64,000 nt of DNA from Candidatus Poribacteria bacterium (GTDB lineage: Bacteria > Poribacteria > WGA-4E > WGA-3G), in contig OZ219751.1 of assembly GCA_964291315.2 (NCBI GenBank), positions 32,001 to 96,000 of the forward strand, in the 5' to 3' direction. The notes under the pieces were generated by a model. The model saw only the letters and a program-made list of their open reading frames with translations, did not search any database and had not been told where the DNA came from. Shown piece after piece: positions 9,594-16,389 of this stretch; position 1 is the first letter of the stretch, and every line of letters starts with the position of its first letter. Both the position numbers and the translations under genes were made by a program.

Positions 9594-10739
9594 ATGCAAC
9601 AGAACGATAAATATGGTGTTCTTTTGCTCGGTGGACATCGTACACATCAGGAGAATTACGCTTTGAGTTTCGCACAAGATGAGCGTTGTCGATTAGTCGC
9701 CTTTGCGGATGAATTGGACGGACCGTCAGAGCGGATTGCCTTGGGGAAATCCCTTGCAGAGGAGTTAAATCTACCCTTCATTGCCGATCTTGATGAGGCG
9801 TTGGCACGTAAGGATGTGCATATTGTCAGTCTCTGCACGGATGTAGAACGCCGCGGGCGCATCGGGGCAAAATGTGCCGAAGCAGGAAAGCATGTTTATC
9901 TTGACAAACCGATGGCGCTCAATCCGGAAGATGCCAGCAAGATTGTTGCCGCTGTTGAGAAAAACGGAGTGAAATCTCAGATGTTTAGCAATATTTATAG
10001 TACGTGGGCGCGTACGGTTCAGCAAGCGTTAACAAGCAAGCGTATCGGTGAACTTCAGGCAATTCATTGCGATGTTATGTTCTCAAAGGGGCATCCGGGC
10101 ACTGCACCCATTGGAGAAAAGAGAACCCAAAAACCGACGTTAGAGCACTACAGTTTCGTTGAAGCCAAGCCCGAGATGTTTGATGTTGGTATTTATGCGG
10201 TTTCTATGGTAAATTGGTTAACGCAGAAACGAGCGCAGCGTGTCTTTGGTGAAACAGCAAATTATTTTTTTCAGGAACATCGCAATTGCGGACTTGAGGA
10301 CTTCGGTGCTTTAGTCTTGACCTTAGACGGTGGGATCACTGCAACAATTGTGGGCGGACGCTATGGTTGGCAGAGCCACGCGCAAGGCGGCGTTCGGAAG
10401 GTACATCTCGTCGGCACTGAGGGCTCTTTAACGTTTGATGCTTCAGCAAATCGCTTAGAAGTTTTTGCTGCTGAACCAGCGTTTGAACCACCAGAACCAC
10501 ACCCACTCGATCCAATGGGCATGTGGAGTAGCACACAATCTGGAATTGGGATGCGACCTAAACAGCAGTGGATAGATATCAGCAGTGGAGATGATGGACC
10601 GCGAGAATTCGGCGCGTTTGTAGATTGTGTTGAGAAAGATGTAGAAAGCGAGATGAATGCAGAATTTGCGGCGCATTCTGTCGAGATTATCTGCGCTGGT
10701 TATCGTTCTGCTGCGAGTGGTGAGGTCATCACCCTCTAA
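9594..10739 (+). CDS. Gfo/Idh/MocA family oxidoreductase
   Basis: AGKHVYLDKPMA, RIGEL, ED, GTEG and SAASGEV motifs. Confidence 0.9.
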   Translation: MQQNDKYGVLLLGGHRTHQENYALSFAQDERCRLVAFADELDGPSERIALGKSLAEELNLPFIADLDEALARKDVHIVSLCTDVERRGRIGAKCAEAGKHVYLDKPMALNPEDASKIVAAVEKNGVKSQMFSNIYSTWARTVQQALTSKRIGELQAIHCDVMFSKGHPGTAPIGEKRTQKPTLEHYSFVEAKPEMFDVGIYAVSMVNWLTQKRAQRVFGETANYFFQEHRNCGLEDFGALVLTLDGGITATIVGGRYGWQSHAQGGVRKVHLVGTEGSLTFDASANRLEVFAAEPAFEPPEPHPLDPMGMWSSTQSGIGMRPKQQWIDISSGDDGPREFGAFVDCVEKDVESEMNAEFAAHSVEIICAGYRSAASGEVITL

Positions 10740-12552
10740 CGCCCATCGCTTCCAATTGTGAAATCTGTTTCATCCAAGATTTTCTGATTTCTGGACAGTA
10801 TTCGCCCGGAAGTAGCGATTTCCGTGTGCAATTAACGAGGGCTTGCAAAATTTGGTAACGTCGAATCGGACCGATGTCCGGTAGAATCCGATCTTCGACG
10901 ACAGCTATGATCTCATCGAGCGTTAATCTGCTTGTTTGCTCGGATGAGGTTGGCTGATGCCCCTTGCGAAGACTCACTGCCTCTAGATCAGAACGTAGTG
11001 AAGCAAAGCTCGCAGCAGAATAGTCCTCGGTGAGTTCCAGGATCTGTTCAATTGCTTCTTCAGAGAGTGGTGCAGCGGCAACTTTAGCGATCGTCCAGCG
11101 AAGGAAAGCCTTACGGTCTTCCCCGCTCGGGTCGAGCACTGGAATCACTATATCTCCAACCCTACCTTCTCGTCGTAGGTCAGGTGAAAGGTTATAGATG
11201 CGCGCAGTCATGAGGAGCCATGTGATGTTCCCACGGAGTTGCGGATCCGACATCATTGCCTGTATCTTTCCGGTCAAACGCCGTTCTGTGCTATGCGCAT
11301 CCTTACCAACATCACCGAATTGTGTGTCTGCTTCATCAACGAAGATAAGCACCTTCACAAGCGCCATCAACAATCGTCTGAGTCGCTCGAAAATGACATC
11401 TGTCTGTCCAAACCACATACTTCGAATATTTTTGAGAACCAGAACCGGAATGTCGAGTTCACCGGCAAGCCCCTCGAAAATAAAAGTTTTCCCGCTGCCG
11501 ATCGGACCACAAACACTCATTCCGGCGATTGAATCGGGACCCGTTGAAGTGATGCGTGGGATCAACTGTATCTTGAGAAAATCTACCAGTTTTTGGTTGC
11601 CTACGATATCGTTGAAACTGTGTGCAGGCTTCTTAAATTCTACGACATCCTCACCTAACTGGCCTTGGATAAATTCAGAAACTTTATTAATAACGTCTTC
11701 GGGTTGCAGTTTGTTGCCAGAATAGCGTGCAGAGAGAAGGAGCTGGCGCAGTGCTTGTATAGATAAGCCCGCTGTAAGCATTGCCAGTTGGGTTTGCGTG
11801 CCCCAAAGATTTAGCGGTTTTTCTGTCAGTTTCGGTGTGTTATTAAACCATGAAATGAAATGTTGACGCTCCTCCATTCCCGGTGATGGGATTTCGACGG
11901 TGACCACCTGCGGCAGCCTGATAATTCGAGAGTTCATAAGACTCGCGGATTCTGTGATGAAGATAACAGTATCGTTCCCGTTCATAAAATTAGAATCCGA
12001 AATCCAATCTTGAACGATGCTGATCCGGTGTCTATCCGGGAGCGACAAACTCCGAATTTCACCTTCTGGAAGCAACATATCTGCCGCTTCAATGAAAATG
12101 ATCAATTTTTCTCTTAAAAATTTTTTTCCTTGTGTGTTCCTACTTCGGGAGAGGAGACACAACTGCCGTAAGAGTTCAAGTGCCAAGGTTGGGCTGCCGA
12201 TTGCATCGTTCGTGTATTGTGTAAAAGAAACATCGGCAGTCTCAGAAGAAGCGTATAAACCACTAATAGGGCGGCGCGTATTTATGCTTGCATTTGTGGC
12301 AAACCCCGACTCGGTTACCCCTCGCCATACATTGAACGCCTGCTTAACCTTTTCTCGTTCAGCGTCCTGGGAAAACCGTATGGGTCCGTTGAGTTCGTAA
12401 ACTATCAGGATAAATCCGGGAATATCCCAACTGCAGGTTAGAAAAGGGACGAGTGGAATGTAGTCTGTATTCTCTCCCTCACGTATAAAAAAGAGGTCGT
12501 GGATATTTCCGGACAAGACAAGACTACGAGACGTTCCTGAATTGATGAGCAT
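10729..12552 (-). CDS. AAA+ ATPase with a degenerate N-terminal AAA-like domain and an active C-terminal AAA domain
   Basis: Walker A GPIGSGKT, pore loop SMWFGQTD, Walker B IFVDEAD and Arg finger RREGR; N-terminal half has SGNIHD / IFIEAAD remnants. Confidence 0.85.
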   Translation of the reverse strand: MLINSGTSRSLVLSGNIHDLFFIREGENTDYIPLVPFLTCSWDIPGFILIVYELNGPIRFSQDAEREKVKQAFNVWRGVTESGFATNASINTRRPISGLYASSETADVSFTQYTNDAIGSPTLALELLRQLCLLSRSRNTQGKKFLREKLIIFIEAADMLLPEGEIRSLSLPDRHRISIVQDWISDSNFMNGNDTVIFITESASLMNSRIIRLPQVVTVEIPSPGMEERQHFISWFNNTPKLTEKPLNLWGTQTQLAMLTAGLSIQALRQLLLSARYSGNKLQPEDVINKVSEFIQGQLGEDVVEFKKPAHSFNDIVGNQKLVDFLKIQLIPRITSTGPDSIAGMSVCGPIGSGKTFIFEGLAGELDIPVLVLKNIRSMWFGQTDVIFERLRRLLMALVKVLIFVDEADTQFGDVGKDAHSTERRLTGKIQAMMSDPQLRGNITWLLMTARIYNLSPDLRREGRVGDIVIPVLDPSGEDRKAFLRWTIAKVAAAPLSEEAIEQILELTEDYSAASFASLRSDLEAVSLRKGHQPTSSEQTSRLTLDEIIAVVEDRILPDIGPIRRYQILQALVNCTRKSLLPGEYCPEIRKSWMKQISQLEAMGVRG

Positions 12553-12645
12553 TCCGGCGTCTTGACGGAATGTATAGGTTGGGTTTTTAACGGCTATAAG
12601 CTACCCACCCCCTTTTTTCTGCATAGCAGGCCTGTGAGAATCACG

Positions 12646-13482
12646 TTATAACGGCAATTCAGTATCTGAGTCCGTTTTTGCCTTATCGGGTTCAGTCTTC
12701 GTCTGTGTGTCGGTCTGTTGTGCCCCGAAAATTAAGGCATCAAATTCGTCAGAAGCACTGGAAGATCGCGCAGCTGTAAGGAATTCTTCCTCTTCGCTCG
12801 TTGAATCCGTTCCGGCTAATTCCTGTGCAACTGTTGACCGCGCCTTTGCTTTCTCGCGTATTTCGCGCATTCGAGTCAATTCGGCAGAGGTTCCATCCAT
12901 ACTGATGCCCGAAAGCATATCGGCAATTTCCTCTTGTTCTCGAGCCGTAATTAGATCCGCAACTGCCTCGGACTGTTCAGTTTTAATCTTATCTAAATCA
13001 CGATGTAAACTAGTGATCTGAAGTTTATGTGACTCAACATCAGCTCGTGCACCTTCAATCTCACTTTCCAATTCTGTAATGCGCTCGGTTTTCTCCACCA
13101 AATTGGAATTAAAGTCTTGGTAAGCAGTGACGCATCTTGTATATTCAGGGTGCTGCTTGACTTGTTCCTGTGTCAACCCTTCACCCTGCAATGCCGTAGC
13201 TGTCTCTTGTGCCTTGGCGATTGCCCCTGATTTTAGTTCTTCAAACCGATCGACTTCGTCAGTCAGGTTTTTAACCGTAGATTTCTTCTGTTCCACGATC
13301 GCAATGAGTTGTCCGATTGCTTGCTTATAACGCTGGATATTCCCTTTTTTATCCTTGATGATGTCTTCATAAGCCCCTCTGACGGCTTCAGGGTTTTCCA
13401 TCATTCTATCCGCGGATTCATGCGCGCGGCCTGTCAGTGTATACCAGATAGCCTTAAAAAATCTTGTGAATCCATTTGCCAT
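12646..13482 (-). CDS. PspA/IM30/Vipp1 (ESCRT-III superfamily)-like coiled-coil protein
   Basis: Amphipathic N-terminal helix (GFTRFFKAIW), ENPE motif, long coiled coil, 'RMREI...A' and 'DEFDAL' C-terminal helices; AGGAG RBS. Confidence 0.75.
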   Translation of the reverse strand: MANGFTRFFKAIWYTLTGRAHESADRMMENPEAVRGAYEDIIKDKKGNIQRYKQAIGQLIAIVEQKKSTVKNLTDEVDRFEELKSGAIAKAQETATALQGEGLTQEQVKQHPEYTRCVTAYQDFNSNLVEKTERITELESEIEGARADVESHKLQITSLHRDLDKIKTEQSEAVADLITAREQEEIADMLSGISMDGTSAELTRMREIREKAKARSTVAQELAGTDSTSEEEEFLTAARSSSASDEFDALIFGAQQTDTQTKTEPDKAKTDSDTELPL

Positions 13483-13980: not shown

Positions 13981-16389
13981 ATGCTTGTGAAACCTATGGT
14001 ACATAGGTCATTTTCATATTGGTTGTGGTTTGCTGCGCTTGGCGCATTAGCACTTGTGCTTACCAATGTGCCGTTATTTGACATCCTTGCTTACGAGTTT
14101 TGTGCTGTAATGGCGCTCGGTATCTCTTTCACAGGTGCGCATGTGACACTAACAACACTGCAACAAATGAAGCAAAACCCTGAGGCACTTGCAGGTTCAT
14201 CCAGACAAATCGTCTTCCGATGTTTCTGGAACGCACTGATATCTAACATCAGTTTACTCATGCTGCCGCTTCTCATAATCTTGCTGAATGCTTTTCGTTC
14301 CAAGAATTGCGATTTTAGAGAAGGATTCCTCTTTTTTGTTATCTTACCGTTGATCAGTTGTTTGTATGCTACAGCGGCGGGCGTATTTTTCGGAGTCTGG
14401 CTCAAAACAAGATGGTTAGCATATTTGGCATATCTGAGTTATCTTCTGCTTTCTTATGTTCCGATGGTTATTAATCTAATATTTCATCCACCAGTGTTTG
14501 CATATCACTCCACTTTTGGGTATTTTCCAGGACCAATTTACGATTTTGTTGTTCAGATAACACGGACGCTTCTAATTGCACGGATGGAAACGTTGCTCTG
14601 GATACTCTTATTTTTGGGACTTACTGTCACTTTATGTGAGGTTAGTAGAAAAACAGGATGGATGCCCCAATTGAGATGGTGTAAATTGGTGGCCCCGCTT
14701 AGGAAACGTCTGCCGCTATATCTATTAACCCTCATTTTACTCGGTTTTCAATTTTACGCCGGGGCACTCGGTATTCGCCCAACTCGCGAGGACATCGCAC
14801 AAGAACTCGGAGGATTCCGAGAAACAACACACTTTGAAATTTTCTATGCGCGTGAACTCGATACCGAGATTGATCGGATTGCCGAGGATTGTGAATTTCA
14901 GTACGCCCAATTGTCCGCCTACCTCATGCCTGAAGGTGCAACGCTGTCCCGGAAAGTCCGAGCATATATCTATGCCTCCCCCGAACAAAAAAAGCGGTTA
15001 ATTGGTGCACGTCATACGTCCGTAGAGGACCCATTTGGGTATGGGTTTCACATCCATGCACAAGGCTTCCCGCATCCGGTGTTAAAGCATGAATTAGCCC
15101 ACGTTTTTACTGTACCTTGGTCCCCTCTGAAAGTGAGTTTGAAGATAGGTCTCCACGAAGGAATAGCAGTCGCTGCGGATTGGAATGAAGGTAGGTTGAC
15201 AGGCCACCAATGGGCAAAAGCGATGCGTCAGATGGAGGTCGCCCCACCCCTACTAAGCATCATGGGGATTGGGTTTTGGCAGTACGCAGGCTCCCAGAGC
15301 TATCTTTTGGCGGGATCCTTCGTTCGGTTCCTTTTTGACACCTATGGTCTCGAGAAATTTAAGAATGTTTTTCCTACCGGAAATTTTTCCAAACATTATG
15401 GAAAGAATTTGTACGCCTTGGAGAGGGAGTGGGTTGAATTTTTGGAGAATATACCTTTGGAAGACGACGATATAGCTTACGCGACCTACCGTTTGCAGCA
15501 GCGTAGTGTTTTTGAGCGGGTTTGTGCCCATAAAATGGCTGCTTTGCGGGACGCTGCCTGGCATGCATACTCCCGAAAAGATTTTCGCACTGCTACTCAA
15601 ACCTTTGAAACGATGCTGTCAACCGAGCCTAAGAGTCTCGGTACATTGCGCGGTTTAATGTATAGTGCCTACAGAATGCAAGATTATGACAGAGCTCTCT
15701 CTTTAGCAACCTATATCGCAAACGAACAAGATACACGCTTCAGTCCAGAGGCAGTGCTGTTAAAAGGGGACATCTACTGGCTTAAGAATGTTCATGAGAA
15801 AGCATTGGACATATACTTTTCATTGGAAACAGAACATGAGACGACTGAGTTAAGACGTATCAAACGAATTGTGGCGCTCTCTTATCCTGATATGCCCGCA
15901 ACAGATGAGAATCTCCAACCGATTCCCATGGGGCCGGAAAATTTTTCCCCGCGAGATTTACTCCGTGCTGTGCTGTTAGAATCTAAAAAGGCATCGGAAA
16001 AAATGGTGAACTTGTCAATATGTATACAAACCGACCCGGACATGTGGTTGGCATACCTTTTAGCGGGCGAATTGCTTCATAAAGAAGGAGCATGGCAGAG
16101 CAGTAATCAATATTTCGAACGCGCTGCGATGCTCTTAGAGAAAGCGGAGACTCAGGGTAAAGATTCACATAGAACCCCAACGTCGCTACAGCTGACGCAC
16201 CGACAATATCGAAGCATCACTTTAGACATCCAGAGGACAATAGGCATCAACGCATATCATCAGAAAGATTATGAGACCGCGACACGAGTGTTTTCTGCAA
16301 TCGCAAAAAGTGAAGGGTTGCCCCTCGGGACAACACTGAAGGCAGATGAATGGCGACAAAGATGTCAATGGGCGCAGCTGCATCGATAG
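13981..16389 (+). CDS. Multi-pass membrane protein with zincin-type metallopeptidase domain and TPR repeats
   Basis: About 7 TM segments, then HELAH...EGIA (HExxH + downstream E, gluzincin pattern), then TPR-like helices. Confidence 0.75.
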   Translation: MLVKPMVHRSFSYWLWFAALGALALVLTNVPLFDILAYEFCAVMALGISFTGAHVTLTTLQQMKQNPEALAGSSRQIVFRCFWNALISNISLLMLPLLIILLNAFRSKNCDFREGFLFFVILPLISCLYATAAGVFFGVWLKTRWLAYLAYLSYLLLSYVPMVINLIFHPPVFAYHSTFGYFPGPIYDFVVQITRTLLIARMETLLWILLFLGLTVTLCEVSRKTGWMPQLRWCKLVAPLRKRLPLYLLTLILLGFQFYAGALGIRPTREDIAQELGGFRETTHFEIFYARELDTEIDRIAEDCEFQYAQLSAYLMPEGATLSRKVRAYIYASPEQKKRLIGARHTSVEDPFGYGFHIHAQGFPHPVLKHELAHVFTVPWSPLKVSLKIGLHEGIAVAADWNEGRLTGHQWAKAMRQMEVAPPLLSIMGIGFWQYAGSQSYLLAGSFVRFLFDTYGLEKFKNVFPTGNFSKHYGKNLYALEREWVEFLENIPLEDDDIAYATYRLQQRSVFERVCAHKMAALRDAAWHAYSRKDFRTATQTFETMLSTEPKSLGTLRGLMYSAYRMQDYDRALSLATYIANEQDTRFSPEAVLLKGDIYWLKNVHEKALDIYFSLETEHETTELRRIKRIVALSYPDMPATDENLQPIPMGPENFSPRDLLRAVLLESKKASEKMVNLSICIQTDPDMWLAYLLAGELLHKEGAWQSSNQYFERAAMLLEKAETQGKDSHRTPTSLQLTHRQYRSITLDIQRTIGINAYHQKDYETATRVFSAIAKSEGLPLGTTLKADEWRQRCQWAQLHR

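Follow-up and report, generated by a model that had tools for sequence, protein, structure and literature searches.

Do bacteria possess a dedicated motor that takes ESCRT-III-type polymers apart? A two-gene locus in the genome of a sponge-symbiont member of the Poribacteria raises this question. According to one review account (PMC7619361), a Vps4-like regulator of ESCRT-III dynamics appears to be absent in bacteria. In the stretch of 64,000 nucleotides analyzed here (the window), a PspA-like gene and a gene for a tandem AAA+ ATPase lie next to each other, and the pair may show how bacteria recycle PspA polymers, which are of the ESCRT-III type. A PspA paralogue with its own unfoldase would make the question of PspA/Vipp1 polymer disassembly directly testable with two proteins. 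An earlier, sequence-only reading of this DNA had stated that such pairings were known from comparative genomics, and rightly so; the dyad of PspA and a two-AAA protein has been predicted from genome comparisons (Ravi et al. 2024, PMC11237479), and the module is widespread. The value of the present locus consequently lies in a clean minimal example and in sharper hypotheses, not in discovery, as the idea itself has already been published as a prediction.

Both genes are real, with open reading frames on the minus strand (Table 1). The promoter proposed for the PspA-like gene can be recovered as a consensus match, with nothing beyond that match to mark it; the region holds 8 promoter-like sites, compared with 4.8 +/- 2.3 in shuffled sequences. 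Searching the whole genome for PspC gave no match, and the nine sigma-54-activator matches in the genome all fall on contigs other than that of the window, which bears out the earlier statements that pspC is missing and that no pspF is present at the locus.

Table 1. Features of the PspA-like/ATPase locus, in window coordinates.
Feature	Position	Strand	Basis
PspA/IM30-like (ESCRT-III superfamily) paralogue, 278 aa	12646..13482	-	ORF, Pfam, profile, Foldseek
N-terminal amphipathic helix alpha0, residues 3-16, candidate membrane anchor	13435..13476	-	AF2, hydrophobic moment
Acidic, mostly disordered C-terminal tail, residues 225-278	12649..12810	-	composition, pLDDT
DEFDxLIF motif, residues 245-252, candidate ATPase-recognition element	12727..12750	-	conservation in A4
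C-terminal L-P-L, Leu nearly invariant	12649..12657	-	conservation in A4
Intergenic spacer with G-rich Shine-Dalgarno-like stretch (12604-12614)	12598..12645	-	sequence, terminator scan
Probable 15-codon N-terminal ATPase extension from ATA	12553..12597	-	codon-periodic conservation
Tandem classical-clade AAA+ ATPase, 607 aa from ATG / 622 aa from ATA	10729..12552	-	ORF, Pfam AAA
D1, degenerate AAA domain, residues about 1-300	11653..12552	-	hhalign, profile A5, motifs
D2, motif-complete AAA domain, residues about 335-530	10963..11550	-	motifs, A1 conservation
D2 Walker A GPIGSGKT, residues 349-356	11485-11508	-	
D2 pore loop 1 SMWFGQTD, residues 378-385	11398-11421	-	
D2 Walker B IFVDEAD, residues 403-409	11326-11346	-	
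D2 Arg fingers RREGR, residues 460-464	11161-11175	-	
Family-specific C-terminal motif RRYQxLQALxNCTxxSLLP, residues 564-582	10807..10863	-	A1 conservation

By sequence profiles and by its predicted model, the 278-aa protein is a divergent PspA/IM30 paralogue. Pfam PspA_IM30 (PF04012) matches its residues 9-243 with an E-value of 4.6e-8, spanning profile positions 3-206 of 220. The score of 33.4 bits lies 0.5 bit below the curated cut-off of 33.9 (28.4 bits for this gene in the six-frame genome search), a cut-off exceeded within the subfamily by L105 at 41.4 bits and by L107 at 40.7 bits. When the PDB was searched with the family profile A4, built from 32 sequences with identity down to 20%, the top 8 matches were all Vipp1/PspA (E 1e-5 to 2.4e-4), and Foldseek with the AF2 model placed Vipp1/PspA structures at all of ranks 1-11 (E 5e-4 to 0.03, about 250 aligned columns). 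The sequence-only reading had named this fold in advance as a point on which it could fail, and both searches return it as PspA/Vipp1-like. The model has a mean pLDDT of 75 and helices at residues 3-16, 31-100, 112-196, 198-223 and 227-241, the hairpin reaching pLDDT 87-97; the PspA/IM30 architecture of alpha0, alpha1/alpha2-3 hairpin, alpha4 and alpha5 is thus present in it. VIA-align gave no separation, with Z 10.4 for Vipp1 and up to 12.6 for unrelated helical hairpins, and comparing profiles with the canonical PspA of this genome gave a weak match (probability 12%).

The two ends of the protein deserve separate attention. Helix alpha0 is modeled with a low pLDDT of 46-48; its hydrophobic moment is 1.82, whereas random 14-mers drawn from this protein average 0.85, and 0.7% of them get as high. 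At the same N-terminus the pattern F..F.K.WY.LTG is conserved in A4, with G18 invariant. At the other end, the acidic tail described in the earlier reading is there, with 14 D+E to 4 K+R, and pLDDT stays below 50 over residues 250-278. Among the 32 sequences of A4, F247 is invariant, D248, L250 and L276 are each at least 90% conserved, and the chains end in LPx or DLG; the genome's two canonical PspA proteins have C-terminal ends unlike these. We regard the EFDxL motif together with the terminal Leu, conserved in the ATPase-linked PspA subfamily, as a candidate recognition tail. In some Poribacteria a membrane protein of 416 aa bears the same C-terminal module, EFDxLIF included.

From its motifs and profile matches, the partner is a classical-clade, Cdc48-like tandem AAA protein with a degenerate D1 and a motif-complete D2. 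The Pfam AAA match is confined to residues 347-467 (E 9e-15). In the PDB the closest relatives are VAT, p97, Cdc48 and AFG2, with E 8e-19 for the ATPase against VAT and E 1e-37 for D2 with its family profile against VAT/p97/Cdc48. At 50% identity the family falls into 237 clusters with E <= 1e-30, and the ATPase has no close paralogue in its own genome. D1 lacks the Walker A lysine and the Walker B DE pair, the corresponding sites reading LSGNIHDL (13-20) and IFIEAADM (152-159). Aligned to D2 with hhalign, it gave a probability of 96.2% (E 2.7e-9, 144 columns; 0.2% for the reversed control), and of the 15 weak PDB matches to its profile A5, 14 are AAA domains with colinear alignment. By these alignments D1 is a degenerate duplicate of D2, and the tandem architecture proposed earlier, a dead D1 followed by a D2 of active type as judged from its motifs, is well supported.

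D2 carries both motifs that the sequence-only reading had quoted, SMWFGQTD and RREGR. Its Walker A and B motifs, aromatic pore loop 1 and two arginines are those of the classical AAA clade and align to both VAT D1 and VAT D2. The family alignment A1 shows no variation at G349, G352, G354, K355 and R451, and conservation of at least 90% at E407, D409, R461 and R464. The sensor-1 position departs from the clade, with Ala450 standing opposite the Asn of ATN in the VAT alignment; among 30 members of A1 this column is filled by Ala 20 times, by Ser five times, by Thr twice and by Cys, Val and Asn once each. Because of this residue the motor may be slow or atypical. The C-terminal motif of the family has P582 invariant and Q567, A571 and C575 at least 90% conserved in A1.

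The start of the ATPase bears on how the two genes are arranged. Across 80 Poribacteria rows, the 45 nt before the annotated ATG show entropies of 0.43/0.26/1.09 by codon position, compared with 1.3-1.4 in every phase farther upstream, and the ATG itself is kept in only 60 of the 80. This codon-periodic conservation and the poorly kept ATG indicate that translation probably starts at ATA (window position 12597), giving a product of 622 aa. The codon at that position is ATA in 60 rows, ATC in 16, ATG in 3 and ATT in 1; an in-frame TAG lies two codons upstream of it in the window, and the extension peptide, xPTYxFR, matches the conserved YPF N-terminus of distant family members. The spacing of about 90 nt reported earlier is accurate to the ATG (93 nt); with the ATA start the gap would be 48 nt. 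No terminator-like site was found within this spacer in a terminator scan, and its G-rich Shine-Dalgarno-like block shows no change across all 14 genomes aligned. The short gap, the Shine-Dalgarno-like block and the lack of a terminator-like site are operon features.

Linkage of the two genes was followed first within the phylum and then beyond it. In 76 of 80 Poribacteria loci the PspA-like gene is found upstream of the ATPase in the same orientation; the other four have short flanks or an insertion. The ATPase was found in 110 of 151 phylum genomes and the PspA-like gene in 106, all of them within those 110; neither occurs in the remaining 41. The genes are therefore syntenic and co-distributed in related genomes, which was the second point on which the earlier reading had offered itself for refutation. 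Canonical PspA was present in all five ATPase-negative genomes tested, so that the link to the ATPase is specific to this paralogue. Of 80 loci from more distant relatives in metagenomes, at 34-69% identity to P0311, 34 have a PspA-like frame upstream of the ATPase and in the same orientation. Where 4 kb or more of upstream sequence is available, 23 of 38 loci have one; the other 15 have no PspA-like gene within 5 kb, and the ATPase family is thus not obligatorily adjacent to one. Three operon layouts occur among these relatives, and in a quick tree the type of partner follows the ATPase clades.

These distributions make it very improbable that the genes are mere neighbours, or an anti-phage defence module, with no partnership in membrane remodelling. 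Close Poribacteria do share general synteny, an unrelated GFO/MocA neighbour being kept in 69 of 80 loci, but linkage of the pair persists across ATPase lineages only 25-50% identical and through the three layouts, and presence and absence of the two genes co-vary across genera. The PADLOC matches that might suggest defence are weak (LmuB/JetC coiled-coil, E 2e-5 to 2e-4; IetA P-loop, 1e-4) and limited to generic coiled-coil and P-loop stretches. A role as assembly chaperone, in which the two proteins would help to assemble or insert membrane complexes such as a linked ABC importer instead of recycling polymers, also seems rather improbable to us. It would fit the 12 of 72 metagenomic ATPase rows on the tree in which the pair sits inside an importer operon (TM-coiled-coil protein, PspA-like protein, NMT1-type binding protein, permease, ABC ATPase and AAA), and Ravi et al. 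propose sub- and trans-membrane complex assembly roles (PMC11237479). However, the pair has no transporter genes beside it in the window or in distant tree rows (16 + 7 rows, window included), and the queries used detected in this genome neither the TM-coiled-coil protein nor a 607-aa orphan that related Poribacteria carry.

Taken together, the identities of the two proteins, the dead-D1/live-D2 architecture as read from its motifs, co-orientation, co-occurrence and the subfamily-specific conserved tail lead us to propose, with moderate confidence, a two-gene operon in which the product of one gene, a dedicated Cdc48-like type-II AAA+ ATPase, acts on that of the other, a specialized PspA/IM30 paralogue. 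The PspA-like protein would bind membranes through alpha0 and polymerize as PspA and Vipp1 do. The ATPase would assemble into a hexamer in which D1 serves as scaffold ring and D2 as motor, and would recognize the EFDxL motif, the free C-terminal Leu that ends the acidic disordered tail, or both. Threading of a subunit through the D2 pore would extract it from the polymer, leading to polymer disassembly or turnover, and the ATPase would then correspond in function to Vps4 in its action on ESCRT-III. The non-AUG start might keep the motor sub-stoichiometric to its polymer-forming substrate. By analogy, such an ESCRT-III/Vps4-like disassembly mechanism is plausible, and the locus offers handles on it in the conserved tail motif, in Walker B Glu407 as a substrate trap and in the likely true N-terminus of the ATPase.

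The relation between the two proteins might be of another kind, in which the PspA-like protein recruits the ATPase to stressed membrane or inhibits it, and other proteins, such as damaged membrane proteins, are its true clients. E. coli PspA is described as binding and inhibiting the AAA+ protein PspF (PMC7619361), the 15 distant loci without a nearby PspA-like gene suggest that the motor may have other clients, and EFDxLIF on the 416-aa membrane protein hints at the tail as a portable docking tag. We consider such a regulator or adaptor unlikely, since the ATPase is a classical-clade AAA protein with neither sigma-54 activator domain nor HTH, and long, disordered acidic tails that close on a conserved residue are typical of threaded substrates. 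The strict co-occurrence within the phylum is compatible with either model. Building on the substrate model, we put forward tentatively, as a possibility more than an expectation, that the family is the missing functional counterpart of Vps4 in bacteria, a Cdc48-derived tandem AAA unfoldase of separate evolutionary origin from Vps4 that strips tagged PspA polymers and is held at low dose by its conserved non-AUG start. The tag would be a portable EFDxL...Leu-COOH, carried by the PspA paralogue and in some genomes by a membrane protein, and subunit stripping would drive or reset membrane remodelling.

How does this pair compare with known systems? With ESCRT-III/Vps4 and CdvB/CdvC of eukaryotes and archaea it shares an ESCRT-III-superfamily polymer gene directly upstream of a classical-clade AAA gene, and a C-terminal tail motif on the polymer protein that could recruit the motor. 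The partner here is of PspA type, not Snf7 type, and D2 has nearer relatives in VAT, p97 and Cdc48 than in Vps4. Of the earlier label "Vps4/Cdc48-type", the Cdc48/VAT-like half holds and the Vps4-like half does not: no MIT-like recognition domain was identified in the ATPase (no MIT match at E <= 0.1), Vps4_C is absent, the protein is not single-AAA, its N-terminal 300 residues being a degenerate AAA domain, and no Vps4 entry is found among the best 60 PDB matches of the D2 profile. Assignment as a CdvC equivalog was likewise rejected (NF041006, 33.3 bits; cut-off 650). The protein resembles Cdc48/p97/VAT in having AAA domains in tandem, an aromatic pore loop and a double Arg finger, and its D2 has its best sequence relatives there. 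It cannot be counted as a member of that group, as no CDC48_N double-psi barrel was detected, D1 is catalytically dead as judged from its missing Walker A Lys and DE pair, the C-terminal motif is its own, and the TIGR01243 CDC48 model gives 40.8 bits against a cut-off of 802.65.

E. coli PspA-PspF offers a PspA-family protein functionally tied to an AAA+ ATPase, a tie that we infer here. PspF belongs to the sigma-54 enhancer-binding proteins and has an HTH; the present ATPase has neither an HTH nor a match to PF00158, which rejects it as an activator of that type, and its genome has no PspC match. In the archaeal Halo_adaptin loci, as described by Makarova et al. (2024, PMC10936438), a Vps4-like ATPase without MIT is preceded by a gene weakly similar to PspA, an arrangement like ours; the VAT-like N domain on the ATPase and the winged-helix partners of that archaeal system are not seen here. 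The closest counterpart is the dyad of Ravi et al. (PMC11237479), a PspA homologue adjoining a protein that has two AAA+ domains, the N-terminal of them inactive, and our pair matches this dyad by the published description. The same ESCRT-III/Vps4 analogy is proposed there, and the longer operons that it describes (TM-segment Snf7-like coiled-coil, ABC ATPase, permease and binding protein) are found among the relatives of our pair. The tail with EFDxL and terminal Leu, the sensor-1 Ala, the non-AUG start and the pattern in Poribacteria are not part of that description of the dyad, and the window presents it in its minimal two-gene form.

The sequence-only reading had proposed that a PspA/ESCRT-III-like protein and a Vps4/Cdc48-type tandem AAA ATPase, encoded side by side, form a membrane-remodelling module. 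The two ORFs are co-oriented and, as called, 93 nt apart; all the motifs quoted for them were found, each at the kind of position described. The window (C2:32001-96000) belongs to an assembly of 4.4 Mb that is 95% complete; judged by how its close homologues are named, the genome is one of Candidatus Poribacteria. The pair is a real, conserved operon, a further member of a predicted, experimentally uncharacterised kind.

Coordinates of the gene pair, of PspA-family genes elsewhere in the same genome (G000) and of associated features in related loci (L numbers denote extracted loci)
Feature	Position	Strand	Basis
PspA-like protein, 278 aa	window 12646..13482	-	ORF listing
Tandem AAA ATPase, 607 aa from ATG	window 10729..12552	-	ORF listing
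Probable 15-codon N-terminal extension of the ATPase	window 12553-12597	-	codon-periodic conservation
802-aa protein, divergent from the PspA-like gene	window 13981-16389	+	
386-aa PspA-family fusion with N-terminal membrane domain	G000:C4:671368-671964 (L001:949-2109)		genome search
223-aa canonical PspA, ABC ATPase and permease directly after	G000:C4:2237484-2238119 (L002:1492-2163)		genome search
Extra PspA-like copy upstream of the full copy	L062:2324-3013	+	
607-aa ORF between PspA-like gene and ATPase	L062:4090-5913	+	
278-aa protein, N-terminal TM segments and long coiled coil	L089:3936-4772	+	
416-aa predicted membrane protein (genome G129)	L167:1804-3054	-	

Against Pfam PspA_IM30 the 278-aa protein scored 33.4 bits, 0.5 bit below the curated cut-off, with residues 9-243 lying on profile positions 3-206 of 220 (E 4.6e-8), and a single-sequence search of the PDB matched Vipp1/PspA weakly (E 0.015). 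With a profile of 32 members of the subfamily, Vipp1, PspA and sll0617 filled the top 8 places (E 1e-5 to 2.4e-4), followed by generic coiled coils at E 1.7e-3 or worse. The AlphaFold2 model (mean pLDDT 75, 87-97 in the hairpin) has helices at residues 3-16, 198-223 and 227-241 and a long hairpin made of 31-100 and 112-196; after a further short helix (246-256), the chain ends in disorder. Foldseek searches with this model returned Vipp1/PspA structures at all of ranks 1-11, over about 250 aligned columns (E 5e-4 to 0.03); re-ranking with VIA-align did not discriminate, giving Vipp1 a Z of 10.4 as against up to 12.6 for unrelated long helical hairpins. Together, the Pfam, profile and Foldseek results bear out the proposed PspA-like fold and indicate that the protein is a divergent PspA/IM30-family paralogue. 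The window's genome has two more PspA-family genes, both scoring above the 278-aa protein, and no AAA ATPase gene adjoins either of them. Run against a single sequence, that of the genome's canonical PspA, the 32-member profile gave a weak match (hhalign, probability 12%).

In the ATPase, Pfam detected one AAA domain (residues 347-467, E 9e-15) and no MIT, Vps4_C, CDC48_N or sigma-54 activator domain; the lack of the last of these tells against a rival model that follows PspA-PspF logic and makes the pair an adaptor or regulator system. The protein also falls far below every NCBIfam equivalog cut-off (41 bits against 803 for CDC48, 33 against 650 for CdvC). Membership of the Vps4 or Cdc48 family is ruled out by the missing domains and these scores, so that of the type first proposed the degenerate first domain (D1) and the motif-keeping second domain (D2) stand, but the family assignment does not. 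The best solved relatives of D2 in a PDB profile search are VAT, p97, Cdc48, AFG2 and NSF, with no Vps4 entry among the best 60 matches. Walker A, Walker B, an aromatic pore loop and the two arginine fingers are all present in D2 and conserved across its family. PDB alignment places Ala450 at its sensor-1 asparagine position, a column that holds Ala in 20/30 and Asn in 1/30 sequences of the family alignment; by these alignments, the alanine is a real departure from the canonical motor. D1, in the N-terminal 300 residues, lacks the Walker A lysine (LSGNIHDL) and the DE pair (IFIEAADM). A profile of this region gave 15 weak PDB matches, 14 of them AAA domains in colinear register, and hhalign paired D1 with D2 over 144 columns (probability 96.2%, E 2.7e-9; reversed control 0.2%). 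These matches and this comparison identify D1 as an AAA-domain copy that has degenerated. The family comprises 237 clusters (50% identity) at E <= 1e-30, its named members coming from Coatesbacteria, Sumerlaeia, Omnitrophica, CSSED10-310, Spirochaetes and Poribacteria. The label 'SpoVK/Ycf46/Vps4 family' that JGI gives some of them is a generic COG name, and our literature search found no paper linking Ycf46 to Vipp1 or PspA.

The gap of about 90 nt described at first holds for the ORFs as called, but a probable upstream non-AUG start shortens it to 48 nt. The 3' two-thirds of the called 'intergenic' region is nearly invariant in 14 genomes. Across 80 Poribacteria rows, entropy in the 14 codons ahead of the ATG is 0.43/0.26/1.09 by codon position, and 1.3-1.4 in all phases over the 30 nt farther upstream. 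The ORF-finder ATG is kept in 60 of these rows and missing in 20, while the codon 15 positions 5' of it reads ATA in 60, ATC in 16, ATG in 3 and ATT in 1. In 54/80 rows the 10 codons preceding this candidate start include an in-frame stop (in the window, a TAG two codons ahead of the ATA), and a G-rich Shine-Dalgarno-like block sits 6-10 nt 5' of the ATA. Furthermore, the peptide encoded by the extension agrees with the N-terminus conserved among distant members of the family. Codon-phase entropy, loss of the ATG, upstream stops, the peptide match and the Shine-Dalgarno-like block argue that the most likely start of the ATPase is a conserved non-AUG codon at window position 12597, which makes the protein 622 aa long. 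A terminator scan found no terminator-like site in the 48-nt gap.

The synteny predicted for relatives was found: a PspA-like gene lies upstream of the ATPase, on the same strand, in 76/80 Poribacteria loci, a count inflated by kinship and by the general synteny of close Poribacteria, which keep an unrelated oxidoreductase neighbour in 69/80. Of the four exceptions, three are loci whose upstream sequence is too short, and the fourth carries an inserted 1392-aa repeat protein. Among 151 sampled genomes of the phylum, in counts likewise inflated by kinship, the ATPase occurs in 110, the PspA-like gene in 106 (all within the 110) and neither in 41; within the window's own family the figures are 99/99 for the ATPase and 97/99 for the PspA-like gene. 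All five ATPase-negative genomes examined keep canonical PspA genes scoring well over the Pfam cut-off, and therefore the ATPase travels with the PspA-like paralogue and not with PspA generally.

Some loci carry additional genes. The 802-aa protein, whose gene is divergent from that of the PspA-like protein, is hydrophobic in its N-terminal third, contains a HELAH motif of the HExxH type and has TPR repeats at its C-terminus; it keeps its position in 42/80 Poribacteria loci. TPR + 6TM proteins next to VPS4-like ATPases of bacteria are noted by Ravi et al. (PMC11237479). In about 22 loci of a clade at 70-75% identity, an extra 607-aa ORF with no Pfam family separates the PspA-like gene from the ATPase, and a truncated second PspA-like copy lies upstream; a single query did not find the intervening protein in the window's genome. 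Tandem extra PspA-like copies upstream of the full copy occur in many genus-g2 genomes. They lack the C-terminal tail, several have in-frame stops, and they may recall multi-paralogue ESCRT-III sets or be decaying duplicates.

Beyond close relatives, we examined 80 metagenomic loci whose ATPases are distant relatives (34-69% identical to P0311). A same-strand upstream PspA-like ORF was present in 34/80; in the 38 loci whose upstream sequence extends to 4 kb or more, it was present in 23 and absent in 15. Three layouts occur: the ATPase immediately preceded by a PspA-like protein of about 248 aa that ends in DLG, with tsaD downstream in all five such loci examined with Pfam; the ATPase immediately preceded by a form of about 278 aa ending in LPx, which is the window's type; and an operon of a TM-coiled-coil protein, the PspA-like protein, an NMT1-type binding protein, a permease, an ABC ATPase and the AAA ATPase. 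The last underlies a rival model in which the pair is an assembly chaperone tied to the ABC importer; a single query did not find the TM-coiled-coil partner in the window's genome. Partner type tracks ATPase clades in a quick tree of 72 ATPases, with equal clustering in 0/200 label shuffles, a test in which kin share labels. One ATPase clade (L089, L090, L091) has directly upstream a 278-aa TM/coiled-coil protein in which the profile used detected no likeness to PspA, a candidate for the 'TM + Snf7-like' partner of Ravi et al. That the two genes are neighbours by chance is unlikely in view of the linkage in distant loci and the co-occurrence across the phylum. A defence module is also unlikely, and we rejected this reading since the PADLOC matches are generic coiled-coil and P-loop ones only.

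Down to 20% identity, the PspA-like subfamily keeps F247 invariant, and D248, L250 and a Leu two or three residues before the C-terminus are at least 90% conserved. A variable acidic linker, disordered in the AlphaFold2 model, separates the EFDxL residues from the terminal Leu, and the C-terminal ends of the genome's canonical PspA proteins differ from this tail. Its conserved residues are the most likely candidate for an ATPase-recognition element. The tail module seems portable between proteins: the last ~115 residues of the 416-aa predicted membrane protein match PspA-like residues ~151-255, EFDxLIF motif included, with similar matches in genomes G016, G069, G090 and G126 and none in the window's genome.

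An ESCRT-III/Vps4-like mechanism is the best-supported reading, and we hold it with moderate confidence. The PspA-like protein would polymerise on the membrane via its amphipathic alpha0 helix, and the ATPase would form a hexamer in which D1 is the scaffold and D2 the motor, engage the tail and pull subunits out of the polymer. Full-text literature searching found no experimental study of the pairing. A 2025 review (PMC7619361) describes a Vps4-like ATPase as apparently absent from bacteria, systems that combine vps4 with ESCRT-III are restricted by Makarova et al. 2024 (PMC10936438) to archaea and eukaryotes, and in Popp et al. 2022 (PMC9239133) AAA appears in the reference list only. Such pairings had been said to be noted by comparative genomics, and Ravi et al. 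agree: they describe the dyad as embedded at times in larger operons that also encode a Snf7-like TM protein and components of an ABC transporter, and they liken it to Snf7/VPS4. The action proposed here would likewise resemble that of Vps4, without the ATPase being Vps4.
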